Shown here: positions 17,310 through 46,669 of the stretch, one piece after another
How the letters are laid out: every line of letters starts with the position of its first letter
Position numbering within the stretch: the stretch's first letter is position 1
Source: Phycisphaerae bacterium
GTDB taxonomy: Bacteria; Planctomycetota; Phycisphaerae; UBA1845
Length of the DNA: 50,219 nt
Direction: 5' to 3'
Assembly: GCA_028282665.1 (NCBI GenBank)
Contig: JANQHN010000102.1
Coordinates: forward strand, 1 to 50,219
Made by a program: the position numbers and the translations under genes
Notes under the pieces: generated by a model
What the model was told of the DNA's origin: nothing
What the model saw: the letters and a program-made list of their open reading frames with translations, nothing else
Database searches by the model: none

Positions 17310-20300
17310 CTAACCGCCCGCAAGCAAGTCGACGAAAAAGAGCAAATCGAGAAGGTCAATACTGATATCGCCATTGAAGTCGAACTGGTTACAACCAATA
17401 CCCATCACGGCATTCGGTCCGCTCAAACAGTCGTACATCAGTGCGAAGTCATCCAGATCCACATCGCCGTCGAAATCGCCATCGCCGTCGGATTTCACGA
17501 TTCGCACCACTCGGAAGCCGATTTCGTCGCTGGTAAATCCGGCCGGCGCGAATGTTCGAAATGACGCTTCACACCCAAGCCAGCCCGAACCGGGCCTGTT
17601 CCAACTTCCGCCGCGAATCGTTCGGTTCGCGATACTGTTGGGGTTGGTATTGAATCGCCCCTGCACCCACTCGTAGAGATTGCCGGACAGGTCGTAAAGA
17701 CCAAAGCTGTTTTCGTTGCCGGCGGTGGCGAATGTTCCGCCGTGGTCACTGCCGTCATAGTACGCGACCGGTGCCGGACCGTTGTCATACGGATCGCCGC
17801 TGTTGATATAGTTGGCATCTTCTGCGGAAATGGTATTGCGACCGAAGCCAAAAACAGTGTTCGCTCCCAAGTCCTCGCTCCAGGCCGCCGCCTTGTACCA
17901 TTCATTGTAATCATCTGCGCTGTCGGTATTCACGGAAATATTGTTGTAGCCCTCATCCATCGGTAAGCGATACCCGCGATAACCAGCGATAAGCGAAGCC
18001 CGCTCGATGTCATTCAAATCGCGCAAGGCCCAGTTAGCTTCGCTAATGGAACTCGGTCGCCAATCGGTCAGCGTCGTTTCCGTCGCTTCGTGGTAACAGC
18101 GCTCGCCCGGCAGCATGCCTTGATCCAACGTCAGCCAATTGCAGTATTTCACCGCTCCGTACCAACTCACACCGGCAACCGGCAAATCGGCGACCGAACC
18201 GTTAAGCAAAGCATACGCGCCATCCTGAAAATAAATGTGACCCGTTTCGTTCGGATCAAACATCACCGCGGTCAGCACATCCTCCCCGGACGCCCCTTCC
18301 CGCGTCGCCCCGACATACACGACTCCGGAGCTTGTGTTGAAATACATAAACTCCCCGCGCTCGTTGGCGGGATTCGCGAGAGCGTCGTTGAGAAACACAT
18401 GAAATTCCGCATTCGTGACCTCTGTCGGAACCATGACAAATGAATAGGCAGGACCAAGCGGCTGAACCTTACTGCGCGGGACCGCGTTTTCCTCCTGTAC
18501 GAACTGCGGTGTAACAACATGCAGCGTTACATCGCGCGTGCTGACATCGCCGTTTTCTCCATCCCAGCTCACTTCGACCGCGACTTGGTACTCTCCTTCC
18601 GCAAGTGCCGCAGCGGCTATAGGATCGATAGCTACCCAAAGCGTCGTCGACTCACCCGAATTTAAGTTCCCCCCTGCAACATTCGCACCATTTAGCATGA
18701 GCCAATTGACCGACGGATTCGTCTGCGCTGTCCAATTCAGCGCGGTGCCGCCTTCGCGATTGATTAGTTCATACGCTTTCGACGCGGGATAGAAAGGCCC
18801 CACACCGGCAGGTCCGGATGCTTCCAAGGATTCCGCGGGGAATACGGATATCGTTCCACTCGCACCAACGGTAAGTTCCACGGAACGCTCAATCGCCACA
18901 TTGGTCAACGTGTCTAGAAAGGTAATCGTACCCGTGTAGCTATCCGGATAGAGCGTGTCCGCGATCTCATTCACGGATACGTTCACATCCGTTTGTTCGT
19001 TCGCAAGAAGCAGTTCCTCGCTGCTGCCCAAGTCAAGCCAATCCACGTCCGTAGTGATCTGCACGGTAATCGCCACTGAGGCGTGCCGATTGGTGAGGGT
19101 GTAAATCTGCTGATCGCCCGGTGTGGCGGACCATGATCCATCCTCATCTTCCTCAGGAACCACTTCGACCGGTTCCTTGACCTCCAACGATAGAGGCGTA
19201 TCGATGGTACGACTCAAGTCGCCGTTCGCCGTATCCGTCCATTGGAAACTCAGATTGATGTCGTATTCGCCTACTGCGAAGCTGTCGGCCTCTCCTGCGA
19301 TACTGACATCGAACGGGCCGATCACTTCGGTCGATGCGATGCTGCCATTGATGGGATCATCGCCGTCGAGGTCCATCCATGTCGCAGTCAATGACACCTC
19401 GTAGTCGAGCGTCATGAAAGAGACGTTTGTATATTCGAACGCACGGCTTGCCGTTTGATCGAACGCATAAAACGGTCCGCCGAAGTAACCTGTGAACTTC
19501 TGCGGATCGGCATCGAGTTTGTTTACTTCGATGGGCTCGCCGATATCTGCGCGAAGTTCACGCGTCTGCGTCACCGAGTGGGTGCTATCTTCGATCGTAA
19601 CCGTTGAGGTGTATTCACCTGGAGCGAGTGTTTGTGCATCTGCGTTCGTTTGAACATCAAATTCCATCGACTCACCGCCGGCCAGAGTTCCTTCCAGGAA
19701 CTGTGAAGCCGGCTCCTGTGAACCCACCTCAATAAGATCGATCCAGATTTCCGCCACACTTACCGCAAAATCCACCGAATTCTCGGAGAGATTCTCCACC
19801 AAATATCGTTTGGCGGGTTCAGGATGCCCTATCATACCTTCTCCGTAAACGACACTTAGCGCAGGTAAATCGTTCTGCGGACCGGCAGCCAGCGCGGGGT
19901 GAAGGTCGAGAATCACGAACCGTTCATAAGTTTTTTTTGATTGAGCATCCGTAATCGTGATCTTCGCGATATGCCCTGTCCCGCGGACCGTACGGAAACC
20001 GGTGTGGTCATTTGAATCTTCGGGAAGTACAGGATCACGGGCATTGTTGCGTAACGAGTCACCGGCCGCGGGGTCAAGGAAGCTCCCACCACGTATCGTG
20101 AAAGGTGCGGCGATGTCGGGCGTGAACAACTCGCTCGTCCACTCCGCGACGTTGCCACACAGGTCATACAGGCCAAATACGTTGTCAGTGTCGAACGTCA
20201 GCGTTTGACCATCAGCGAGTGAGTTCTCGCCATCGAAGAAGGCGATCGAGGTCGTGCCGTCCTCTTCGGTATCGCCACTCGAGAGGAAATTCGCATCGGG

Positions 20301-23300
20301 AGCGGCCGGCTCGGCTTGATCCCGGCCGAAGCCGAAATCGCGATTGGTGAGTTCTTTGTAATCCCACGCGGCGGCTTTGTACCATTCGTTGTAGTCAGCG
20401 GCCGCGAGACTCAAGTCGTCCATAGGCAACCGATAGCCCATCGTCCCGCGTACCCAAGCTTGACGCTCGGCCGCGCTGAACAGGCCGCTCTCCCAACTCA
20501 TCGCGTCAACGGGCCTCCAACCCGGCAAATCGTTAACTGTGCTTTCCGCGTAGGCAAGCAACAATTCGGGAGTACCAATCGTCAGTGAAAGCCAATTGCA
20601 GTACTTCACCGCCCCATACCACGACACTCCAACCACCGGATGGTCCGCGTAGCCCGCCTCTACGCTGTACGCGCCGCTATCGAAGTCGATGCGTCCGACG
20701 GCAACGTCGAAAATGGGAATTGTCGGCGCAGGAGGAACTTCACCTGTACCGGGTGTTTTCGAATCGTTGACGAAAAAGCTTCCCGTTGCCGTGTCCACAT
20801 AGAGGTAAGCAGCGCGGGCATGGTCGCTACCCGCTTGAGCCAAGGACAGCACATCGGTCAAAAAACTGACAAACTCCGCATTGGTAATCTCTGTCTTGTT
20901 AATCCAAAAATCGTAAGTAGGTCCGCCGGGTTGCAAAAAATCGGAAAGCACCGGATGCACATCGCTCCCGTATCCGCGAACCAGTGCGTATCCACCCGGC
21001 GGAACAGACGATAAGCCAAGTGTGGAAACTTCCGCCGAAAACCGAAGCGTCACTTCAAGCGACTCGCCAGGTTCATGCGGCGGAATCTGCGTCGGTGATA
21101 CGCCGTCGATTTCCAGCCAGGGTACATCAATTGAGATGTCCAACTGATCCACCGCAACGTCGGAAGGGTTGTGGATCGTCAGTTGCAACGTTGTATCCTG
21201 CAAATCCTCGCCTAATAAAGCATCGACTCGCCAATGTCGTGCAGGCGTGATTTCCAATTCGACCGGCTCGAATGCTTGCGAAACGCGAAATCCCACGAAA
21301 TCGTATGCACCGGTTGCCGGCAGTGAGCTTCGGCGATCGGTACGGAGAAAGATCGAAGACTCAATGTTTTGAAAATGCCCGCCTCGAATACCTGCCTCAC
21401 CTGTCGGCATACTATGGTCGTGCGTCCATTCCGCGACATTCCCCGCCATGTCATACAGACCGTACCCGTTTCCCGTGTCCTCGGTGAATGCCTCCGGATC
21501 AGCGAGCGTGTTTAAGCCGTTGTAGTACCCAACCGGAGCGCATCCCGGCTCAAACGGATCGGCGCTATCCAGGTAGTTCGCGTCCGCGATGGATATGGTG
21601 TCCCTACCGAAACCGTAAACAACATTCGTACTCGACACATCAAGCCAGGCTGCCGCCTTGTACCACTCTCCCTGGGCAGACGCACCTTCCACCCCGTCAT
21701 CCATGGGCAACCGATACCCGCGTTTCTGTGCAACAACGTCTGCGTTGGAAAGCGTAACCTCCCAATCCGCCGCGACAGGCCCTTCGCCGTACACGCGTTG
21801 ATTGGACGACATCCCCTGCAACAACGTCAGCCAATTGCAGAATTTCGCCGCCCCGTACCAACTGACACCCACAACCGGGTAGTCCCAAAAACCAGGTTCA
21901 ACGGTATAGAATCCGTCTTCATACCGAATCGGACCCTCCCCCGCCGGATCGTACGAAAAAAGCGTCGTTCCATCTCCGGCTAGTTTCACACGGCCCGCAA
22001 CCGTGTCATGGGTTAAATTGTCATCAGGATTTATATCGTTAAGGAATCGCACAAACGCAGTGTTGGTAACTTCAAATTTGCCAATTCGATACAAGTAAGC
22101 AGGACCGTCGGGTTGTTCGTGATCAACAGGTATGTTGACCATATCGAGGGCAAAACCCTGTCCGCCGACCGTAAAAACCACCGATCGTGTCGCACGTGCC
22201 TGGGTCAGTACGTCCAGAAAAGTCAACGTGCCGGTGTAGGTGCCTGTCGGCAATGAATACGCTTCGGCCGTAAGGAAGATAGTTACATCAACCGAAGACT
22301 CCGGATCGAGCAGCGTCCCTTCGCTGGGATCGGCATCAATCCATACCACACCCGGCGGCTGATCGGTCGTATCCTCAAACATCACGCTCCAGAACATCTC
22401 AGGGCCGTGGTTTGTCAGCGTATAGACTTTCTCGACCGGACCGAACGGTCCTCCTTGTGGACCGGAAAAGGAAACATCGTCGGTTGGTGCAACGTCCAGT
22501 TCAGTCACGGTGAGTCGCACGACACGATCAATCTCGAACCCACTCGTTGGCTCGGCAAATCGAAGCGTTGCAACGTATTCCCCGACACCGAGCAAGTCCG
22601 CGGCGGACGTGAGGTTTATATCGACATTCACAAATTGGCTCGGCGCGATCACTTGGCCTGTACTCGACAAGTCAAGCCAATCCACCTCCGGTTCAATAAC
22701 GGACAATGCAAACTCAACGTCGGAATCCGCTTCATTGGTGATCGTATAAGTATGCGAGGCAGGTTCGAACGGGCCGCCGAAAGGCCCGGAAAATTCCTGT
22801 TCTTCCGCAGGTTCTACGCTGAAAGGTGAAATCACTTCGAGCGAAACCGTCCTGACGAATGCAGTACCCGTGCAGGAATCCGTAAAGGTCACGGCCGCCT
22901 GATACGTTCCCGCCGTCAAATTCGCGACCTCGGACGCATCGAAAGCGATCGCCACATCGAAAGTGCCACCAACCGGCACTTCACCATCCACCTGTTGTCC
23001 GCCATTGAGCGTAAGCCACAACAGACCGCTATCACCGGCGGTCTCCTCCCAGGTCGCAGTGAATGCGACGACCACATCCGACAGCGAGGTAAACGTATAT
23101 GTGCTGCTTTCGACGTCGGGCGTTCCACCGACCGGCATGGTTGCACTGAATCCGCCGGCGGGTGTGAGTTGAAGCGGCTCGCTTACGGTGAGGATGACGT
23201 CGCGCGTGGCGGCGAGGGTTTGACTCGTCAGGTTTTCAATCGTAATAATCGCGTTGTTCACTCCGACATGAAGCCCATCTTCGCAGAGTGGATCGATCGT

Positions 23301-24638
23301 CACCGTCAGCATTGCGCCTTCACCGGCTGGTATAACACCGTCAGGCCTGTCGTCCTCAAGCATCACCCAAGGTGCATCCGAAGACGTAGCGAATGAAATC
23401 GGCATTTCAGCAATGTTTGCAATTTCGTAGACTTTCACATCCGAATCAGGCACCGCATACGGTCCGCCCCACGGGCCGGACGCGGACAAGTCCTGGTATG
23501 GAGTGACGAGAAGTGCATCGATAACGCTCTGAACGATACGAAATCCGGTTGCATCGCTGGGTGAACCCGCCTCTCGATGAGCGGCAGTGTTGGCGCGTAG
23601 GGAGAATGTGCTGCTTCGCCACGACCCGCCGCGATTACGACGCCTTGCAGGATCGGTCGGTGATTGATCCTGCATCCACTCCCACACGTTGCCGGACATG
23701 TCATACAGGTTGTACCTGTTCTCCGTGTCACGTGTGACCGTGCTGCCATCGCCGAGCAGATTCACACCATCAAAGAAGCCGATCGGCGTAGTGCCCGCTT
23801 CGAATGGATCGTCGCTGCCAAAGAAGTTGGCGTCCGCGTTTTCGATGATGCTCCGACCAAATCCGTATAGCGTGTCTCCAACGCCATCGAACGCCGCAGC
23901 CTTGTACCACTCGTTGTACAACGATGCGCCGCTCGCTTGACCATCCATCGGCAATCGAAAACCAACGTATTCTAGCAGATTTTGGCGTTCCGTATCGTTT
24001 AAATCCCGCGTTGACCAGTCGGCAGCACTAATCGTCACCGGTCGCCAGCCTGACAAATTCGACGAAGGCGACTCCGCGTACGCACGATCATCGGGCGCGA
24101 GTCCAATGTCCAAAGTCAACCAGTTGCAAAACTTGATCGCACCGTACCACGTAACTCCCGCCACCGGATGATCGGCATATGCGGGATCGTCGAGAACAAA
24201 TTGATTGTCGCTGTAGATGATGTGACCGTTGGCAACTGTGTCAAACAACTTCGTGCCCGAGCCCTGGGTGCCGATTACGCCGTGGGTCGAGCTATGAATG
24301 TAAACGTCGCCCGAATCGACGTCGAAGTACATGTAATGACCCTTGGGGGCGGTAAGGTTCGATTTGGCGTCGTTGAGGAAAGCAACGAATTGCTCATTGG
24401 TAATTTCGTACGCGGTGATCCGAAAATCATGAACCGGACCAACCGGTTGATCGTCGACACCCGGTATGACTGAAAACGAAAGTGAATCAAGTTCGGTCGA
24501 TTCCACGTGTAAATAAGAAGTGCTCGCCTCATGAATGCCCTGCCGCATCGCCGGCCCGCCTGCTGATGCGGTCAGAATCAGACCAGCGCCGATCAAGCAC
24601 ACTACCAACGCTATCTTTCGCCTTCTTGCCATTTGCAT
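17310..24638 (-). CDS. Giant secreted surface protein: 4 FGE-sulfatase/C-type-lectin-fold domains, ~9 BACON-like repeats, C-terminal dockerin-like repeat
   Basis: GGAGG RBS then MQMARRRKIALVVCLIGAGLILTASA signal peptide. Four copies of E(I/V)TN..F, PV.GV(S/T)WYGA.K.CNWL, RLPMD, EWYKAAA, LYD(M/L).GN..EW, RGG, GFR. GP.GGPF..Y...N...W repeats. The C-terminus is DGDGDFDGDVDLDDFALMYDCLSGP...DFNGDISIDLLD. Confidence 0.9.
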   Translation of the reverse strand: MQMARRRKIALVVCLIGAGLILTASAGGPAMRQGIHEASTSYLHVESTELDSLSFSVIPGVDDQPVGPVHDFRITAYEITNEQFVAFLNDAKSNLTAPKGHYMYFDVDSGDVYIHSSTHGVIGTQGSGTKLFDTVANGHIIYSDNQFVLDDPAYADHPVAGVTWYGAIKFCNWLTLDIGLAPDDRAYAESPSSNLSGWRPVTISAADWSTRDLNDTERQNLLEYVGFRLPMDGQASGASLYNEWYKAAAFDGVGDTLYGFGRSIIENADANFFGSDDPFEAGTTPIGFFDGVNLLGDGSTVTRDTENRYNLYDMSGNVWEWMQDQSPTDPARRRNRGGSWRSSTFSLRANTAAHREAGSPSDATGFRIVQSVIDALLVTPYQDLSASGPWGGPYAVPDSDVKVYEIANIAEMPISFATSSDAPWVMLEDDRPDGVIPAGEGAMLTVTIDPLCEDGLHVGVNNAIITIENLTSQTLAATRDVILTVSEPLQLTPAGGFSATMPVGGTPDVESSTYTFTSLSDVVVAFTATWEETAGDSGLLWLTLNGGQQVDGEVPVGGTFDVAIAFDASEVANLTAGTYQAAVTFTDSCTGTAFVRTVSLEVISPFSVEPAEEQEFSGPFGGPFEPASHTYTITNEADSDVEFALSVIEPEVDWLDLSSTGQVIAPSQFVNVDINLTSAADLLGVGEYVATLRFAEPTSGFEIDRVVRLTVTELDVAPTDDVSFSGPQGGPFGPVEKVYTLTNHGPEMFWSVMFEDTTDQPPGVVWIDADPSEGTLLDPESSVDVTIFLTAEAYSLPTGTYTGTLTFLDVLTQARATRSVVFTVGGQGFALDMVNIPVDHEQPDGPAYLYRIGKFEVTNTAFVRFLNDINPDDNLTHDTVAGRVKLAGDGTTLFSYDPAGEGPIRYEDGFYTVEPGFWDYPVVGVSWYGAAKFCNWLTLLQGMSSNQRVYGEGPVAADWEVTLSNADVVAQKRGYRLPMDDGVEGASAQGEWYKAAAWLDVSSTNVVYGFGRDTISIADANYLDSADPFEPGCAPVGYYNGLNTLADPEAFTEDTGNGYGLYDMAGNVAEWTHDHSMPTGEAGIRGGHFQNIESSIFLRTDRRSSLPATGAYDFVGFRVSQAFEPVELEITPARHWRVDALLGEDLQDTTLQLTIHNPSDVAVDQLDISIDVPWLEIDGVSPTQIPPHEPGESLEVTLRFSAEVSTLGLSSVPPGGYALVRGYGSDVHPVLSDFLQPGGPTYDFWINKTEITNAEFVSFLTDVLSLAQAGSDHARAAYLYVDTATGSFFVNDSKTPGTGEVPPAPTIPIFDVAVGRIDFDSGAYSVEAGYADHPVVGVSWYGAVKYCNWLSLTIGTPELLLAYAESTVNDLPGWRPVDAMSWESGLFSAAERQAWVRGTMGYRLPMDDLSLAAADYNEWYKAAAWDYKELTNRDFGFGRDQAEPAAPDANFLSSGDTEEDGTTSIAFFDGENSLADGQTLTFDTDNVFGLYDLCGNVAEWTSELFTPDIAAPFTIRGGSFLDPAAGDSLRNNARDPVLPEDSNDHTGFRTVRGTGHIAKITITDAQSKKTYERFVILDLHPALAAGPQNDLPALSVVYGEGMIGHPEPAKRYLVENLSENSVDFAVSVAEIWIDLIEVGSQEPASQFLEGTLAGGESMEFDVQTNADAQTLAPGEYTSTVTIEDSTHSVTQTRELRADIGEPIEVNKLDADPQKFTGYFGGPFYAFDQTASRAFEYTNVSFMTLDYEVSLTATWMDLDGDDPINGSIASTEVIGPFDVSIAGEADSFAVGEYDINLSFQWTDTANGDLSRTIDTPLSLEVKEPVEVVPEEDEDGSWSATPGDQQIYTLTNRHASVAITVQITTDVDWLDLGSSEELLLANEQTDVNVSVNEIADTLYPDSYTGTITFLDTLTNVAIERSVELTVGASGTISVFPAESLEASGPAGVGPFYPASKAYELINREGGTALNWTAQTNPSVNWLMLNGANVAGGNLNSGESTTLWVAIDPIAAAALAEGEYQVAVEVSWDGENGDVSTRDVTLHVVTPQFVQEENAVPRSKVQPLGPAYSFVMVPTEVTNAEFHVFLNDALANPANERGEFMYFNTSSGVVYVGATREGASGEDVLTAVMFDPNETGHIYFQDGAYALLNGSVADLPVAGVSWYGAVKYCNWLTLDQGMLPGERCYHEATETTLTDWRPSSISEANWALRDLNDIERASLIAGYRGYRLPMDEGYNNISVNTDSADDYNEWYKAAAWSEDLGANTVFGFGRNTISAEDANYINSGDPYDNGPAPVAYYDGSDHGGTFATAGNENSFGLYDLSGNLYEWVQGRFNTNPNSIANRTIRGGSWNRPGSGWLGCEASFRTFAPAGFTSDEIGFRVVRIVKSDGDGDFDGDVDLDDFALMYDCLSGPNAVMGIGCNQFDFNGDISIDLLDLLFFVDLLAGG

Positions 24639-24830
24639 CACGTTCGTGCCTCCATGCACCGTGAAGCCTCGTGCGAGTACACTCAGCTCAAAAGCTTCGG
24701 CGTACAAATATCCCGCTGCTCTCCATCTATGTTCTATCGGATGATGGCTAAACTCGAGCACACGATTTCAAGCGAGGGTGGTCGGCCGGTGTATGTCGCC
24801 GGCGCAACTGGCGCGTGGTGAAATTTGCGC

Positions 24831-38695: not shown

Positions 38696-39496
38696 TCACG
38701 GAATGTCTTCCAGATTGCTGTCGAGGGTGTCGGTGATGAGCATGTGTCCCGGCTCGTGAGTGATCGCGAAGTCCGGTTTTGCATTTACCAACGCGACCAT
38801 CGGCGTTACGCCACACGCCCAAAATACGCACACTTCATCCTGACGAATCTCTACCGGATCGCCGAAGTCCGGCCGATCGATGTCGCCGATACCGATTTCC
38901 GCAGGATCGCCAATGTGAATCGGCGCACCATGGGCAGCCTCGTAGCGGGCAGTGATTCGGCGGGCTACTTTAGCCTGATCCACAGTCATCGGACGCATCG
39001 ACACCACGAGCGGTCCGCCAAACCGCCCCCCCGCAGTCGTATCGATACCGGTCTTGTACATAGGAACGTTCTTGTGCTCTTCGACGTGACGAATCGGAAT
39101 CCCCTCGCGAAGTAAGGCTGATTCAAACGTAAAAGAACAACCAATCAGAAACGATACCAAATCTCCCCGCCACCATCGCTTTAAATCAGTGGGGCGATCG
39201 ACGCATTCGCCATCTTTCAACACACGGTAGCGAGGCAGGTCCGTTCGCAGATCAATGCCTGAGCCTAACTTCCGGAGTACGTAGGCCCCCGGTTCCGTTC
39301 GCTCGAGCAATGGGCATGGTTTTGAGTTTCGCTCGCAAAAGAGAGCAAAGTCGTTTGCGCAGGATTGCGGTAGAACAACGAGGTTCACCTGGACGAATCC
39401 AGGTGCCAACCCGGTGGTGTGACCTGTGTGCTGAGCATTGCGACAACTCAGCCGAAGCTCTGCGGCCGTCGCGGTCATCGCTGCTCCCTTTCCCAT
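38696..39496 (-). CDS. DUF1445/YcsI-family putative hydro-lyase (D-glutamate cyclase-related)
   Basis: TTGLAPGFVQVNL, DFALFCERNSKPCPLL, DLRTDLPRYRV, FLIGCSFTFE, NVPMYKT, GPLVVSMRP, HGAPIHIGDP, FWACGVTP, ITHEPGHMLITD. Confidence 0.93.
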   Translation of the reverse strand: MGKGAAMTATAAELRLSCRNAQHTGHTTGLAPGFVQVNLVVLPQSCANDFALFCERNSKPCPLLERTEPGAYVLRKLGSGIDLRTDLPRYRVLKDGECVDRPTDLKRWWRGDLVSFLIGCSFTFESALLREGIPIRHVEEHKNVPMYKTGIDTTAGGRFGGPLVVSMRPMTVDQAKVARRITARYEAAHGAPIHIGDPAEIGIGDIDRPDFGDPVEIRQDEVCVFWACGVTPMVALVNAKPDFAITHEPGHMLITDTLDSNLEDIP

Positions 39497-39512
39497 GCAA
39501 AAACTAACATCA

Positions 39513-41276
39513 CTATACCCATTCGCCCCGCCGTTCTATCATCAAGCGATCCAGGTTGGTTGAGATAGCCTGCGCGTCAATACCGCATAGTCGTGCAATT
39601 AACACCGCCGCAAGGAGATTCTCCGGAAACGCAGGGTCTGCGCTGCCGATGTGCTCCACCGTTCCCTGCAAGTTCGTAAATATTTCACCCCGTTCGAGCC
39701 ATGCCCCACGGCGCATCGGCAGTTCCTCGGAAACGAACATGGTACGACCACGGTGCTTCTCCGCGAGCGCACGCACACGGTGATCGTCATGGGAGAGAAT
39801 CAGGATGTCGTCCGGATGGTGATTCATGAATACGCGACTCTTGATTCGGGCGTATTCCTCCAGCGTCCGGTGTCGATCGAGATGGTGATCGAAGAGATTC
39901 AAAATGACTGCGATGTGCGTGCGAAACTGCACCACTGTCTCCAATTGAAAGCTCGATACCGCCAGCGCAATCGGGTCGTCGCTCGATTCGCTCAACAATA
40001 ACTCCGCGAAGGGTTTTCCTTTGTTCCCGCCTATCGTTAATGGTTTTTTGGACAGTTGAAAAAGAGATTCGAGCGCAAGGCACGTCGACCGCTTCCCAAC
40101 CGAACCGGTAATCCCAATCAAAGGCCTATCGCACAATTGAAAAGCCACTTCAAGTGCGCTGACGACGGGAATACCCAATCGGTGTAACTCAAATCGAACG
40201 GACGCGTCAGCCGGTACACCGGGCGACGCAATAACCAAGCAGCAGCCGGCAAGTCTTCCGATCGTATGCCCACCGACTTCGATGTCGGCGAATCGATCTG
40301 CATCGTAAATTTCAACAACCGCACTGTCCGAAATGACCACGCGATGGCCGAGATGCAACATCAACTCCGCCGTCGCTTGACCGGTTTCTCCGTAACCGAG
40401 AATTCCGACTTCGATGGTTGACGAATCTCGATCGCCTTGTTGCAGGAGATTTGGCAAAGGCGCAATTTGCCTGCGAATGCTTTCGAGCATGCGGATGCTT
40501 TGATCCAGCGACAGCCCATCGACGGTCGGCATCGCTCGACCGGTCACACCATCCACAGCCCCGCCGTCGCGCACAATCGTTTCGATGTCACGAGCAGCTT
40601 GATCTGCCGTCGGTAGCAGATCGCGGCCGACCAGGACAGAAAGCGCTCCCGCCAAGCCATACGCCCCCCAGTTGGATACGCCCGCGATGATACAGAAGTC
40701 TGTCTCGACCGCGCAAGCAATCTCCAGGCCGTGATCGATTCGATCCATCGCGGCGGAAAACATCTTACCCATACCGATCTCGTTTCCGCCGTCGCCGATT
40801 CCGATGGTGATCACGCCCTCATGCTCCGCCTGGATAAACAGCGCATCGAGCGGGCAGGTATGGCTCGATATGTCATCGCCGCGCATGTTGCGATAATGCC
40901 CGTCAGCGGATCGGCCGGCGCGTTCGATGGCAACTAAGTGCGTGGGTTGGCGTTGGGCAATGTAGTTTTCAGGCTCGATCAGCGGATCCAATCCGAGTGA
41001 GCGAAAAAGCGGAGCATTTTCTTCGTCGGTGATGTAGTCGACTTCGATCCCCAAGGCAGTGAGCGCGTCGCCTACAACTTTCGCACCGGGCGGACCATCG
41101 GTTTCTCCACGTTTAGCGCTTGCAATGTAATAACCACTGACAATGCCGACCCGTTTCGCAAGCCGTAGTGAAAGGGCGGCAAGCCTCAGCTGGTCTGATC
41201 GCAATAGCGCAAAAATGTTCCGCCTGCCTGGATCGCGCGCGATAGTATTCTCAATGGAGGCGATGCGCGTGTTCAT
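39513..41276 (-). CDS. Fusion of DUF4392 (glutamate-cyclase-type) domain and truncated, degenerate MurD-like ligase domains 1-2
   Basis: N-half: DPGRRNI, ETDGPPGA, VAIERAGRSADGHYRNMRG, TIGIGDGGNEIGMG, AGVSNWGAYGL, GAVDG. C-half: GILGYGETG, VIASPGVP, IGITGSVGKRST, GGNKG, AVSSFQLE, LNLFDHHLDRH, YARIKSRVF, ENLLAA. Confidence 0.88.
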   Translation of the reverse strand: MNTRIASIENTIARDPGRRNIFALLRSDQLRLAALSLRLAKRVGIVSGYYIASAKRGETDGPPGAKVVGDALTALGIEVDYITDEENAPLFRSLGLDPLIEPENYIAQRQPTHLVAIERAGRSADGHYRNMRGDDISSHTCPLDALFIQAEHEGVITIGIGDGGNEIGMGKMFSAAMDRIDHGLEIACAVETDFCIIAGVSNWGAYGLAGALSVLVGRDLLPTADQAARDIETIVRDGGAVDGVTGRAMPTVDGLSLDQSIRMLESIRRQIAPLPNLLQQGDRDSSTIEVGILGYGETGQATAELMLHLGHRVVISDSAVVEIYDADRFADIEVGGHTIGRLAGCCLVIASPGVPADASVRFELHRLGIPVVSALEVAFQLCDRPLIGITGSVGKRSTCLALESLFQLSKKPLTIGGNKGKPFAELLLSESSDDPIALAVSSFQLETVVQFRTHIAVILNLFDHHLDRHRTLEEYARIKSRVFMNHHPDDILILSHDDHRVRALAEKHRGRTMFVSEELPMRRGAWLERGEIFTNLQGTVEHIGSADPAFPENLLAAVLIARLCGIDAQAISTNLDRLMIERRGEWV

Positions 41277-44200
41277 GCGCGAGACTCCTCTCCATCGGAT
41301 AGTTTACCCCATCCTCCGCCGCCCGGCGTTTCAATTGTCAATACATCGCCGATTTGCACATCAACCGAGACGATCGGCGGAAGAATTTCGACTTTGCCCG
41401 TTAAATTGCGCACTAAAGTGTTTCTGCCAACTGATCCATCATTTCCACCGTGCAATCCGTACGGCCTCTTTAAACGGCGCTGACTCAAAATGGATACTTG
41501 CAGTGAACGCAGAAATTCGATCTCACGCACAACTCCATTTCCGCCACGAAAACGACCCGCGCCTCCCGAGCCTCGCCGAATCTCGAAACGCACAAGGCGA
41601 ACGGGATAGCGTGATTCGAACACTTCCGGATCAGTAAGACGCGTATTGGTCATGTGGGTATGGACAGCATCGGCGCCATCGAACCCGTCGCCCGCGCCCG
41701 CCCCGCCACAGATCGTCTCGTAGTACCCGAACTGCTCATCGCCCATCAGCAGGTTATTCATCGTCCCCTGACTTGCGGCGACAACACCCAGTGCACCGAA
41801 CACGGCGTCCACTATGCGTTGCGAGGTCTCCACGTTGCCACCCGCAACCGCAGGGCACTTTGCGGGATCGTTATCAGACAGCGGATTCAGGAAACAGGTT
41901 GGCAAAACGATTTCCACGGGAGCGAGTACGCCGCTGTTTAGCGGAATGTCCTCAGCAATCAGGCATCGCAGGCAATACAACACCGCGCTGGACACGATCG
42001 CGCGATTGGCGTTGAGGTTGCCGTGCAAGACTTCACCGGTTCCCGTGAAATCAACTCGCGCTTCGTCGTCGTGAATATCGACAGTCACACACAGCGGCGT
42101 GCCATCGTCGAGACGATCTTCAAACATCCGCACACCATCGGGCAAAATGCGCAGGGCGGCGCGCATCTTCGCCTCTGCCGCTCCGCGTATGTGACCCATG
42201 TATGCGAGAACCGCGTTCGATCCGTACCGCTCGACCATCCGCGTCAACTCACGAATACCCGTCTGATTCGCAGCGACTTGGGCAGCGATGTCGGCGATGT
42301 TCTCTTCGACCGACCGGGTTGGATGCGGCCCTGCCGTAAGCAAAGACCGCAACTCAGCCTCTCTCGGACGACCTTCGTGCAAATAGGGAAACGCACGAAT
42401 CACCACGCCTTCTTCGGCAAGCGATGTCGAATCAGGAGGCATGGAACCGGGCATCTTACCGCCGATCTCTGCGTGATGAGCGCGACTGGCGACAAAGAAC
42501 AACAACCTTCCGCCACCCTTCTCATACACGGGCGTCACGACAGTGACATCATTCAAGTGCGATCCGCCGCGGTAAGGGTCGTTCGTCACGTACACATCGC
42601 CGGGATGGAAGGACTCCACATCCTCAATGAGTGCTTTGACACAATCGCTCATGCTTCCCAAATGCACGGGAATGTGCGGCGCGTTGACCACCAGTTCGCC
42701 ATTGGGGGTAAAGATCGCGCAGGAAAAATCGAGGCGTTCTTTCACGTTGGTGGATAGGGCACTGCGGCGTAATGCGGAGCCCATTTGTTCGGCGATGGAA
42801 GCGAATTGATTGTTAAACAATTCCAACTGCACGGGATCAACCGACTCATCGATCCGCTCGCGATTCGCACTCGTAGACGTATCCTCCAATAGGAGATCGC
42901 CATTTTCCTGCACGGTCGCACACCAATCCGGTTCGATCACGACGGTTGAAGTGCCTTCGGTAATAACTGCGGGACCTGCAACTGTGTGATTCGCGTACAA
43001 TTCAGAACGGGCGTATATGGGCGTGGGAACCGCGTTTCCCGCAAACGTAACCTTCGCATGGTCTACAGGATGGGGTGGATTCTCGGATCGTGCGAGCACG
43101 AGAGTCGGCGCTTCATCCGCGGCGGCGACGAGTTCCACACGCAACATACGCACCTCTACCGCTCGTTTCTCGTGGATGTGGCCGAAGAACTGACGGTGTT
43201 TTGCTTCGAATTCCCGGCGGAGTTGTGAAACATCGCCCCAGTGCACCGCGATCAGCGACGATTGCCCTGCGTAACAAAGTTCCGCAAAGCGAACCGCGGG
43301 TTCGAGTCGCCCGTCCGACACACCCTGCTCAATCATCGATTGCGTAGCGTCCCGTTCGAGTTCGACAAAGATACCCTCAAGATCGGTCAATGACTCTACC
43401 GTTGGCTTATGCACCTTCGGTAATTCACATTGCACGCTACGCTCAACGACGCGTTTCACGGAGGCGGCACCAATCCCGAGGGCACTTAGAACGCCAGCGA
43501 ACGGGCTGAGCAGAACGCATTTTATGCCCAGCATACGCGCAATTGCGCAGGCGTGTTGCCCACCGGCTCCGCCGAAACTTGTCAGCACGTAATCACGAAG
43601 GTCATACCCTCTTGCAATGGAGATTTCCTTGATTGGTGCGGCCATGTTGGCATTGGCGATGCGCAAAAATCCTTTTGCAAGCTCCGTACGCGACAAAGCC
43701 TGGACACCTGCATCCTCCATTTCCGATCGAATCTCATCGAGCTTCCGGCCAATCACCATGGAATCAAGTGGAAAAGGAAACAACTTAGCCGGTACGCGGC
43801 CAAGAAATACGTTCATGTCCGTCACAGTCAACGGCCCGCCTCGCCCGTAGCAGGCGGGTCCGGGGTCCGCACCGGCACTTTCGGGACCCACTGCGAGCTT
43901 TTGGCCGTCGAATCGACACACGCTCCCACCACCCGCCGCAACAGTTTCGATTGCGAGCATCGGCGTCATGATTCGCACGCCCGCTTTCACCGTTTCATGT
44001 TGGTATTCAAATCCCCCACTGGAAGTTCCCTCAACTGACAGGTCGATGCGCGAGACGTCCGTGCTCGTTCCGCCCATGTCAAACCCGATCGCGCGATCGA
44101 AACCCGCTTCTTTCGTAACATGCGCACAGCCGACCACGCCGCCGGCCGGCCCGCTCAAGATCGTGTCCCTACCACACGCAACGCTTGCGTCGACAAGTCC

Positions 44201-45136
44201 GCCGTTGCTGGTCATCAAAAAGAACCGCGCTTCAGGCACCGATCGTCGGATCGATGCAACGTAAGATTGCAGCACGGGGCTCAAGTATGCGTCCGCCACC
44301 GTGGTATCACCGCGAGACACAATACGTTCCAACCGCAAGACTTGAGACGAGAGTGAGACCTGCGCGAAACTCACTTCTTTCGCAATCTGCCCCAATACTC
44401 GTTCGTGAGTCGGGTTCACATAACTGTGGAGTAATGCAATCGCGACGGCCTCGAAGCCCTCTTCACGCAAACGGGTTAATCCTTTGCGGGCTTCAGCTTC
44501 ATCCAATGCAACCAATACCGAACCGTCCGCCGCCAATCGCTCGTTGATCTCGAGCACGCCTGTCGCCAGTTCGTCTCGTTTCTTGATGTGCGAATCGAAC
44601 AGTCGCGGTCGATCTTGGTATCCAATGCGAAGCACGTCGGCAAAACCTCGCGTCGTGACAAACGCCGTTTTTGCACCTTTGCGTTCCAGCAGTGCGTTTG
44701 TCGCTCGCGTTGTCCCCAGTCGAATATCAACCTCGCCGATCGGATCCGTCAGTTTTAGTCCCATCAGATAGCGGATCGCGGTGATGGGGGCTTCCTCGCC
44801 ACTGACAAGTTCGTAACCCGAACCAGGTGTGATGGCGTGGGCAAACGGAGCTTCAAGTTCCAATACGCCCTCATCGGCATGGAACGCCGCCACACGTGCA
44901 AAGACCGAATCCGTACCAAGCAATCTGAAGGTATATCCTTGCCAGTGCCTAGCTGGATCGCCAACGCGCGTCGGATCGACAATACGCCGCTCACTCGATC
45001 CTTCCTCGACCACACCGCGAATCGCCCCGCTGCTAAGAAGTTTGTACGTCAATACCCGACCGCCAGGAGCCCGTGCGACCACGTCGGTAAACGTACCGCC
45101 CACGTCTATGAAGAATTGCCAGTTTGATTCACTCAT
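41273..45136 (-). CDS. oplA: ATP-dependent 5-oxoprolinase / hydantoinase, fused HyuA+HyuB type
   Basis: [149 protein letters not shown]. Confidence 0.92.
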
Positions 45137-45256
45137 AGCCCATGAGGATAACCGCTCGCCGGGGTGGTGAACAATCGCCCGAACCAACAGCAACGTTGAC
45201 TCATTGATAAAGTACTTACACTCCGAATCCTGGCAATTCACCATTCGCGAGGTAAC

Positions 45257-46669
45257 ATGGATTGCATGAGTAACGGACCCACCAATCAGGATGGTGTTGT
45301 GACCGGAATGGACACGGCAGTTCCTTGCCCCGCGCATGGATTCACGGCGGCATTGACCGCGCTGCGCCTAGGGCGGTTCGCTCCAAGAAAGGCTGGAATG
45401 ATAGCGCAGCATGCGCCGCTTGGGATCTGGCTCACTATCTCGCTTAGTATTGCCTTGCTCTGCGGCGTCACGATTCTTATTACAGCCATGTTATGTACCG
45501 CGCTGACCAAAACTGCGAGTGGTTACACGACCTACCACACTTTAGTGATAAGCTGGAATCTTGCTACCATCTCCGATATCTGGGCCGATTGGCACGCTGG
45601 CGGTCCAGTCGGTCCGGCCGAGTTCATTCTTGGCGGAACGACGCTTGGTATTTTAGCCGTTGTGATATGCGCAGCCTTGCTTCACGTCAGCACGACGCGA
45701 TCTGGTGGTAGCTTCATGGGGGCGTACGTCGCGAGTTTGAAAGCCTGCTGTGCCTGCCTGAGCCTCGCGACCGCTTTCATCTTCATCCTGTGCTTCGGAC
45801 ATGGCTGGATCTGGGCAATCGAAAGCTATTCCCATGTCGACGAGTTGTTAGGCTTCCTATTCGTGACTTTGCATATGCTGCTAACGGCGCTGTTGCTAAA
45901 TCAGTTTGCGCGGGCATGTTTCGGAGCGCGTCGTACTGTGCCAAGAACAGAAAATCCACCCTGGTGCGAGCGATGCGGGTACGACCTGACTCACCACGTG
46001 CAAGGGGGGCGCTGTTCGGAATGCGGCGAATCGATCGACTGGTCTCTCACAGAAAACCACAAAAGAATGGATTCGCCCTGGAAGCAACAACAGGGCATTA
46101 TGGAACTTGAGAACACCTCGCGGTTTGCAGTTACAGGCTTAAGCAATTTCTACTCGCGACTGCGGGTCTACGGGAAAGATCACGACTATCGCGTTTTACA
46201 GTTCAGCCTGTGGACCTACATTGCGATCGGGATCGGCTCCGCCATTTGGACGTTCGCCTTCCTGGTGTTTGTGGATCCCGGAGATCCGCCTGGTTGGGTA
46301 CTTGTCTGCCTGCCTACTATGGCGTCCTTTGCCTGCCCGCTTGCGGGATGGTGCATGCACAGGGCAACCGTTCTGGCCGTCATGTTCTTCAACTATATGC
46401 ATCATCGACTGCCTAATCCGGCGGTCGCGTGGCCCGTCATCGCGTACGAAACTTCGTACCTGTGGATGTACTGCTTGTTCAACGGCAGTTACCTGCTAAG
46501 TGTTGTAATCTTCGACGACACGGCGGAGTACTTCCTTGGCAAAATAGTGCCCGGATTAGGCATGCCTTGGGGCGTGTTAATATTTTTCGCCGGCAACGCT
46601 GCCCTGTATGCGACCGGCTGCTGGAGACTAAACAAGGCACTCGGCGAAGTCCGATGGGCGAATTTCTGA
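45257..46669 (+). CDS. Polytopic membrane protein with central zinc ribbon
   Basis: Two blocks of ~4 TM segments flanking CERCGYDLTHHVQGGRCSECG. Confidence 0.75.
   Translation: MDCMSNGPTNQDGVVTGMDTAVPCPAHGFTAALTALRLGRFAPRKAGMIAQHAPLGIWLTISLSIALLCGVTILITAMLCTALTKTASGYTTYHTLVISWNLATISDIWADWHAGGPVGPAEFILGGTTLGILAVVICAALLHVSTTRSGGSFMGAYVASLKACCACLSLATAFIFILCFGHGWIWAIESYSHVDELLGFLFVTLHMLLTALLLNQFARACFGARRTVPRTENPPWCERCGYDLTHHVQGGRCSECGESIDWSLTENHKRMDSPWKQQQGIMELENTSRFAVTGLSNFYSRLRVYGKDHDYRVLQFSLWTYIAIGIGSAIWTFAFLVFVDPGDPPGWVLVCLPTMASFACPLAGWCMHRATVLAVMFFNYMHHRLPNPAVAWPVIAYETSYLWMYCLFNGSYLLSVVIFDDTAEYFLGKIVPGLGMPWGVLIFFAGNAALYATGCWRLNKALGEVRWANF

Follow-up and report, generated by a model that had tools for sequence, protein, structure and literature searches.

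Domains DUF1445 and DUF4392 occur together in the mammalian mitochondrial D-glutamate cyclase (DGLUCY, also named C14orf159 and 9030617O03Rik), a single polypeptide whose mouse form converted D-glutamate (D-Glu) to 5-oxo-D-proline, racemase activity being given as not detected in the excerpted account of Ariyoshi et al. (2017; PMC5339696). In Bacillus subtilis, the gene of a DUF1445 protein, ycsI, is likewise found within a 5-oxoprolinase operon, pxpA(ycsF)-ycsG-ycsI-pxpB(kipI)-pxpC(kipA), which encodes the PxpABC type of oxoprolinase and is given in the excerpted source (PMC10448178) without a DUF4392 or MurD part. The MurD2/MurL route of Xanthomonas, in which MurL acts as an ATP-using, one-way epimerase, provides a precedent for ATP-driven, racemase-free inversion of glutamate tied to the MurD step (review PMC8788868, in excerpt). 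For DUF4392 by itself, the closest described protein is TON_0340 of Thermococcus onnurineus, which according to the excerpted report (PMC5132392) binds Mn or Mg via invariant acidic residues and acts as a weak, Mn-dependent phosphatase, the E59Q and D157L mutants being inactive in this respect. The present study concerns an operon of three minus-strand genes (38696–45136) from a marine Phycisphaerae bacterium (assembly GCA_028282665.1), located by an open reading frame (ORF) map in contig JANQHN010000102.1, all 50,219 nucleotides of which are referred to below as the window. Both cyclase-type domains are present in this operon along with a single-chain HyuA/HyuB enzyme and a truncated MurD, and the reading that we favor, with a probability of about 45%, is that a conserved Phycisphaerae operon handles D-Glu and 5-oxoproline under the pull of ATP, the MurD part binding a cell-wall precursor or nucleotide.

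Comparison of this locus with the systems described above indicated several differences. Thus, the mammalian cyclase is one polypeptide whereas the corresponding domains are specified here by separate genes, of which the DUF4392 gene also carries the truncated MurD, and both of these candidate cyclase genes follow the gene of an ATP-dependent oxoprolinase in a translationally packed series. The oxoprolinase of the B. subtilis operon is not homologous with the one found here, and the proteins of the present operon are unrelated to MurL. The first gene (41273–45136) encodes a fused HyuA/HyuB ATP-dependent lactam hydrolase of the OplA or 5-oxoprolinase type (1287 residues), the second (39513–41276) a protein of 587 residues with DUF4392 and the truncated MurD, and the third (38696–39496) a DUF1445 or YcsI-type protein of the D-Glu_cyclase family (266 residues). 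Direct reading of the sequence placed the TGA of the oxoprolinase gene over the next ATG in an ATGA overlap (41273–41276, read from 41276 to 41273 on the minus strand) and a gap of 16 bp (39497–39512) before the ATG of the DUF1445 gene, both as given in the original prediction. That prediction was also correct in assigning the two cyclase-type domains to separate genes but had overlooked that the DUF4392 gene, with a product double the usual length for DUF4392 proteins, is a fusion with truncated MurD. The longest oxoprolinase frame starts at 45337, although its 67 extra residues match no family and overlap a divergent plus-strand ORF; the frame from the ATG at 45136 gives the length of 1287 residues noted above, and ORF calls in related loci gave 1291–1308 residues.

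The tight, co-conserved association of both cyclase-type domains with a single-chain HyuA/HyuB enzyme was borne out by a survey of gene neighborhoods. The 120 closest relatives retrieved with the middle protein were 51–63% identical to it and came, where named, from Planctomycetota and Phycisphaerae metagenome bins; PF14336 and PF08245 were present in every one of them, and PF07286 in five. Among 78 loci from species-representative genomes, the fusion of DUF4392 and MurD was present in nine, i.e., eight Phycisphaerae-type loci and one from Syntrophobacterales (L045), where the fusion stands alone. OplA was directly upstream of the fusion in each of the eight Phycisphaerae-type loci (L040 showing just the tail of OplA at the contig start, and L042 its B half alone next to a stretch of N), and ORF calls for L041 and L042 indicated that there, too, the fusion gene starts before the OplA frame has ended. 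DUF1445 was directly downstream in four of these eight loci (L037–L040), i.e., in four of the six that could be judged, two being undecidable due to contig ends. Because the arrangement is conserved at such limited protein identity, and because its parts are found elsewhere as single-chain fusions, it appears to be beyond chance. In loci with plain DUF4392, the fetched flanks contained DUF1445 in 42 of 68 cases and a match to OplA in none. The DUF1445-DUF4392 pairs of Dehalococcoidia were flanked by RecG, a response regulator and UvrB and not by an oxoprolinase among the ORFs nearest DUF4392, the survey that included them having covered 119 of 200 ORFs, those nearest DUF4392, from 25 loci, one of which contributed none. 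Other surroundings of DUF4392 were also noted. In a Rokubacteria bin (L046:5888-10213), DUF4392 lies between genes for a gamma-glutamyltranspeptidase and a class III aminotransferase, another glutamyl-type context, and in two Clostridia (L050:7472-8897 and L065:7466-8846) a small DUF3870 gene is directly 5' of DUF4392, followed in L065 by genes on the opposite strand for a putative amidase and an M15 protein of the D-Ala-D-Ala carboxypeptidase type.

The strongest evidence for the action of DUF1445 on or beside 5-oxoproline is its fusion to two unrelated oxoprolinases that share only their substrate. The DUF1445 protein of the operon matched PF07286 (D-Glu_cyclase) with 216.2 bits, NF003969 / PRK05463 with 388 bits (cut-off 324) and PDB structures 3db9 and 2pif with an E value of 1e-77. 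Architectures were tabulated from the precomputed Pfam content of its best 120 longer relatives. The partner of DUF1445 was DUF4392 in 57 of these proteins, DUF4392 together with truncated MurD (MurD') in six, MurD' in one, OplA, in single chains, in 21, HyuB in one, PxpC or PxpBC in seven, PF01035 in 14 and some other domain in 13. As an example, a 1598-residue frame from genome G062 (L121:3507-8303) contained, by Pfam, Hydant_A_N, Hydantoinase_A, Hydantoinase_B and D-Glu_cyclase. The other type of oxoprolinase occupies the same place in a Fusibacter locus, the order of which is DUF1445-PxpB-PxpC-DUF4392. The predicted clustering of DUF1445 with oxoprolinases was therefore seen to extend beyond gene order to the 21 OplA-DUF1445 and seven PxpC- or PxpBC-DUF1445 chains, whereas the idea that an OplA partner is peculiar to this locus was not upheld, since OplA adjoined DUF1445 or shared its frame in 11 of the 23 DUF1445 genomes in a sample of 301 from the phylum, for which a completeness of at least 90% was required of all but the genome of the window. 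Single frames of approximately 1500–1600 residues, in which DUF1445 is continuous with an entire HyuA/HyuB oxoprolinase, were noted in G043 and G014 as well as in G062, which has its DUF4392 gene on a separate contig. PF01035, the DNA-binding domain of methylated-DNA-protein-cysteine methyltransferase, was seen with DUF1445 in, for example, P0172 and P0186, one such protein being from the protist Cafeteria.

Identification of the first gene product as a single-chain HyuA/HyuB enzyme, also part of the original prediction, was supported by the presence of all three domains in one chain of 1287 residues, with matches of 659.9 bits to Hydantoinase_B and 293.8 bits to Hydantoinase_A in addition to a match to Hydant_A_N. 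The closest solved chain was a 1288-residue "N-methylhydantoinase" (465 bits), and no NCBIfam model was matched over its cut-off, the matches below threshold being to caprolactamase and to acetophenone carboxylase subunits. The genome itself (88% complete) contained a single HyuB match and no match to PxpA (PF03746) or PxpC (PF02626). Judged from these searches of an 88% complete genome, the enzyme of the operon is the only 5-oxoprolinase candidate. HyuB was found in 178 of the 301 sampled genomes, including 17 of the 18 that hold both DUF4392 and DUF1445. When 47 HyuB domains were placed on a quickly built maximum-likelihood tree, the seven operon-type Phycisphaerae rows formed one group (Shimodaira–Hasegawa-like approximate likelihood ratio test [SH-aLRT] 91), while OplAs with and without linked partners were interspersed, with eight changes over the 47 rows. 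This interspersion indicates that the oxoprolinase belongs to the ordinary lineage of the phylum, with partners added on, and is not a dedicated paralogue. A generic lineage and the status of sole candidate together favor an ordinary 5-oxo-L-proline activity for the enzyme, which would place inversion, if any, in the DUF proteins. The original prediction had allowed for either a hidden epimerase step or an altered specificity of the oxoprolinase, both of which could serve to scavenge D-Glu from peptidoglycan or poly-gamma-glutamate.

On its family matches, the middle protein combines DUF4392 with two of the three MurD domains, the N-terminal and the central one. The DUF4392 or GLUCM-like_C domain (residues 8–268, minus strand 40473–41255; PF14336, 252 bits) matched crystal structures of TON_0340 with an E value of 3e-41. 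Residues E58 and D162 of the middle protein, which align with Glu59 and Asp157 of TON_0340, showed at least 97% conservation among 120 relatives. Fold family and metal-site residues are the same in both, whereas TON_0340 is a stand-alone archaeal protein for which the excerpted report (PMC5132392) shows a weak generic phosphatase and DUF4392 of the present operon is fused to a MurD-derived head. This head (residues 290–576, minus strand 39549–40409), which lies behind DUF4392 and comprises the N-terminal and central domains of MurD, covers positions 2–299 of the 441 in TIGR01087 with a score of 163 bits (cut-off 211.95) and was matched by solved MurD chains, including PDB 3lk7 (E value 5e-31). 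Mur_ligase_C (PF02875) was not found in the middle protein by Pfam search, the third, D-Glu-binding domain being absent.

Residue roles in Escherichia coli MurD were taken from an excerpted review (PMC9780078), which lists Leu15, Thr16, Asp35, Thr36, Arg37, Gly73 and Asn138 as contacts of UDP-N-acetylmuramoyl-L-alanine (UDP-MurNAc-L-Ala), Thr321, Lys348, Ser415, Leu416 and Phe422 as contacts of D-Glu, Arg302 and Asp317 as contacts of ADP and His183 as a contact of magnesium. Residues of the head were mapped on E. coli MurD by alignment and then counted across 120 relatives of the fusion protein. Equivalents of the P-loop residues Gly114 and Lys115 (the latter K395 of the middle protein) and of Gly73, Asn138, His183 (H465), Arg186 and Lys198 were kept in 120 of 120, and that of Asp35 was Asp in 111 and Glu in nine. 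Positions equivalent to Thr36 and Arg37 were variable, Leu15 was mostly replaced by Glu, and Thr16 was represented by Thr, Ser or Ala. The equivalent of Glu157, which we take to be a magnesium ligand of the E. coli enzyme, was Ala in 119 relatives and Ser in one, and the Gly-x-His-Asn segment that holds the Asn268 equivalent was deleted in the fusion proteins, whereas four full MurDs aligned beside them had Glu at position 157 and the segment in place. Compared with canonical MurD, the head thus has the same N-terminal and central domains, P-loop and Asn138, His183 and Lys198 equivalents but differs in the loss of Glu157 and the Asn268 segment and in the lack of the C-terminal domain, into which Arg302, Asp317 and all D-Glu contacts fall. 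From these alignments, the head is an old, strongly constrained derivative of MurD that is neither a canonical D-Glu ligase nor simply decaying. Two other views of the head were discarded. A recent origin by copying of the full MurD gene in this genome, the product of which scored 300.8 bits and was over its cut-off, was ruled out by an identity of 28%. Free-standing MurD heads were also discounted, the 24 best short matches having the appearance of fusion fragments (21 of 24 on contigs shorter than 5.2 kb), and the matches beyond these were full MurDs with at most 41% identity to the head. A DUF4392-MurD fusion was not described in the searched literature that mentions DUF4392, no published account of the operon was encountered in these searches, and relatives of the middle protein were named in databases only as "glutamate cyclase domain-containing protein" or "DUF4392 domain-containing protein". 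Likewise, titles and abstracts of the searched literature on D-glutamate cyclase or DUF1445, YcsI with 5-oxoprolinase, 5-oxo-D-proline and UPF0317 revealed no bacterial pathway of this kind.

According to the reading favored here, DUF1445 and DUF4392, each homologous to one half of D-glutamate cyclase from animals, would interconvert D-Glu and 5-oxoproline, and the HyuA/HyuB enzyme would pull the flux to glutamate by spending ATP on opening of the ring. Our guess is that one of the DUF proteins may also invert or scramble the alpha-carbon, which would give a net ATP-driven conversion of D-Glu to L-Glu in a bacterium with no detected glutamate racemase. Since the P-loop and several UDP-MurNAc-L-Ala contacts are kept while the D-Glu domain and Glu157 are gone, the head most likely binds UDP-MurNAc-L-Ala or a nucleotide and, without any ligation, would gate D-Glu turnover by, or tether it to, cell-wall demand. 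A complex prediction for the middle protein and DUF1445, both entered as alignments, gave a score of 0.00 without controls and weighs neither way.

Several observations weigh against this reading. DUF1445 was not adjacent to the fusion in the fetched downstream flank of two of the six judgeable loci (L041 and L042), and the genome of L042 carries DUF1445 approximately 380 kb from the fusion. Thr36 and Arg37, two of the UDP-MurNAc-L-Ala contacts, are not conserved in the head among the 120 relatives, and the invariant equivalents of the P-loop Lys, His183 and Lys198 look as though they were selected for chemistry, beyond binding. The substrate of the oxoprolinase is assigned from family and context only, given that its closest solved chain is named N-methylhydantoinase and that no NCBIfam model was over cut-off. 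Moreover, enzymes of this type are not known to carry out an inversion of their own, since the mouse protein gave 5-oxo-D-proline and, in the excerpted report, no L-Glu (PMC5339696), and a cyclase and oxoprolinase that worked without inversion would constitute a futile cycle.

The invariant residues of the head also argue for a catalytic alternative, which we consider unlikely. In this alternative, the head would use ATP to phosphorylate the carboxylate of an N-acyl-glutamate-type substrate (either 5-oxoproline or UDP-MurNAc-L-Ala-Glu at its terminal Glu), DUF1445 would epimerize the activated product, and DUF4392, as a Mn-dependent phosphatase type, would hydrolyze the acyl phosphate. The outcome would be an ATP-driven, one-way stereo-inverter, unrelated to MurL and yet like it in its working, for which the ATP-using, one-way epimerization by MurL itself (PMC8788868, in excerpt) is a precedent. 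The retention of Gly-Lys of the P-loop and of the Asn138, His183, Arg186 and Lys198 equivalents in all 120 relatives fits such a role, as do the retention of the residues corresponding to Glu59 and Asp157, on which the phosphatase activity of TON_0340 depends (PMC5132392, in excerpt), and the triple fusions that place DUF1445 in one chain with DUF4392 and the MurD head, as judged from Pfam content. Further support comes from loci in two phyla where a MurL-like gene and a full MurD have DUF4392 as their immediate upstream neighbor, one in a Planctomycetota genome (G096; L129:5246-8830) and the other in a bin labelled Omnitrophota (L097; 7986-11724), the latter with 4-base overlaps between ORF calls at both junctions. 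NF041275 scores of these MurL-like genes were 483 bits for G096 and 200 bits for L097, both under the cut-off of 700. This placement of DUF4392 beside MurL and MurD is, on gene order, a second, independent tie of DUF4392 to the muropeptide glutamate step, besides the MurD fusion. DUF4392 did not adjoin MurL-MurD in G174 or G306, however, i.e., in two of the four such loci examined, and the module of OplA, DUF1445 and DUF4392 is without a MurD part in most lineages. Catalysis by the head is also difficult to reconcile with Ala at the position of Glu157 in 119 of 120 relatives, with deletion of the Asn268 segment and with the location of the ADP contacts Arg302 and Asp317 in the missing domain. 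It is a long shot that DUF4392-MurD' and DUF1445 constitute a new ATP-dependent glutamate stereo-inverter working via an acyl phosphate, which with the oxoprolinase would provide a racemase-free, one-way D/L-Glu conversion that feeds or drains the MurD step, a system like MurL made of unrelated parts.

The source of D-Glu in this bacterium and its relatives was considered in connection with another alternative, that the operon makes D-Glu for peptidoglycan in a racemase-less bacterium and is turned on when the MurD head binds UDP-MurNAc-L-Ala, much as E. coli MurI (glutamate racemase) is activated by this compound. We regard this as rather improbable. In its favor, no match to MurI was obtained in the 88% complete genome, and MurI was over cut-off in none of the 19 sampled genomes with DUF4392 compared with 45 of all 301; an overlap of 0 against approximately 2.8 expected by chance is not significant, however, and related genomes are not independent. 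A MurL-like gene (NF041275) was likewise without a match in the genome, as opposed to three of the 301 in which one was found, and four genomes of group f25 had no match to MurI or MurL and class IV aminotransferase scores of only 132–154 bits. The existence of a MurD-derived head and the occurrence of DUF4392 beside MurL-MurD are also in keeping with D-Glu synthesis. In contrast, DUF4392 was present in just 19 of 301 genomes (DUF1445 in 23 and both in 18) while 256 of 301 had no MurI over cut-off, which means that the majority of Planctomycetota without the racemase do not depend on this system. The best class IV aminotransferase of the genome scored 251 bits, near the cut-off of 277 for D-amino-acid transaminase, and it lies within a continuum of TIGR01121 scores (193–298 bits; over cut-off in two of 301 genomes) from which a complementary pattern is not decidable. 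The presence of a full MurD over cut-off in the genome and the generic lineage of OplA count against synthesis as well, as does the closure of the glutamate ring being the downhill direction. As a general source of D-Glu for the phylum, the operon found no support and was rejected on the same counts, i.e., DUF4392 in 19 and MurI lacking over cut-off in 256 of 301. As a separate matter, the D-Glu source of most of the sampled Planctomycetota was not evident from the models for MurI, MurL and D-amino-acid transaminase, MurI being over cut-off in 45 of 301 genomes, a MurL-like gene present in three and D-amino-acid transaminase over cut-off in two.

Action of the operon on some other lactam or cyclic amide (hydantoin, a substituted pyrrolidone or similar), with the DUF proteins processing its precursor or product, is suggested by the N-methylhydantoinase of 465 bits as closest solved chain, by the solely sub-threshold NCBIfam matches to caprolactamase and acetophenone carboxylase subunits and by the fusion of DUF1445 to such unrelated partners as PF01035 (14 of 120) and others (13 of 120), but is very unlikely in view of the fusion of DUF1445 to both non-homologous types of 5-oxoprolinase, the common feature of which is their substrate, the action on D-Glu of the mouse homologue introduced at the outset, and the fact that a genome with a sole oxoprolinase candidate must still clear 5-oxo-L-proline.

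Outside the coding regions, the divergent intergenic region 5' of the operon (45137–45256, from the ORF map) is presumed to contain the promoter. A consensus scan gave one promoter-like site against 3.9 expected and seven terminator-like sites against 8.0 expected, neither above chance. The public runs listed as containing the stretch included no RNA run, the only ones being four DNA runs labelled coral metagenome from two studies; two of the runs contain over 50% of the words sampled from 38696–45136. The divergent plus-strand ORF (45257–46669; 470 residues) had no Pfam or NCBIfam match, and its position upstream of the operon was not conserved in L039 or L041. Elsewhere in the window, a minus-strand ORF of 2483 residues (17310–24761) contained four FGE-sulfatase (sulfatase-modifying-factor-like) domains and had no further family match.

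Proteins with DUF1445 (YcsI) and DUF4392 have a wide distribution that ranges from bacteria to humans. The occurrence of DUF1445 on both types of oxoprolinase and of DUF4392 on a remnant of MurD suggests that these proteins act on the pair of glutamate and 5-oxoproline, next to an ATP-driven ring opener, and further suggests that in some lineages they may be connected with the stage of peptidoglycan synthesis at which D-Glu is added. The operon thus points to a putative route of D-Glu handling with a link to the synthesis of the cell wall. Should an inversion take place, this route would represent a new, racemase-independent interconversion of D- and L-glutamate and, if true, would bear on how most Planctomycetota, a phylum with MurI over cut-off in only 45 of 301 sampled genomes, obtain or dispose of D-Glu.

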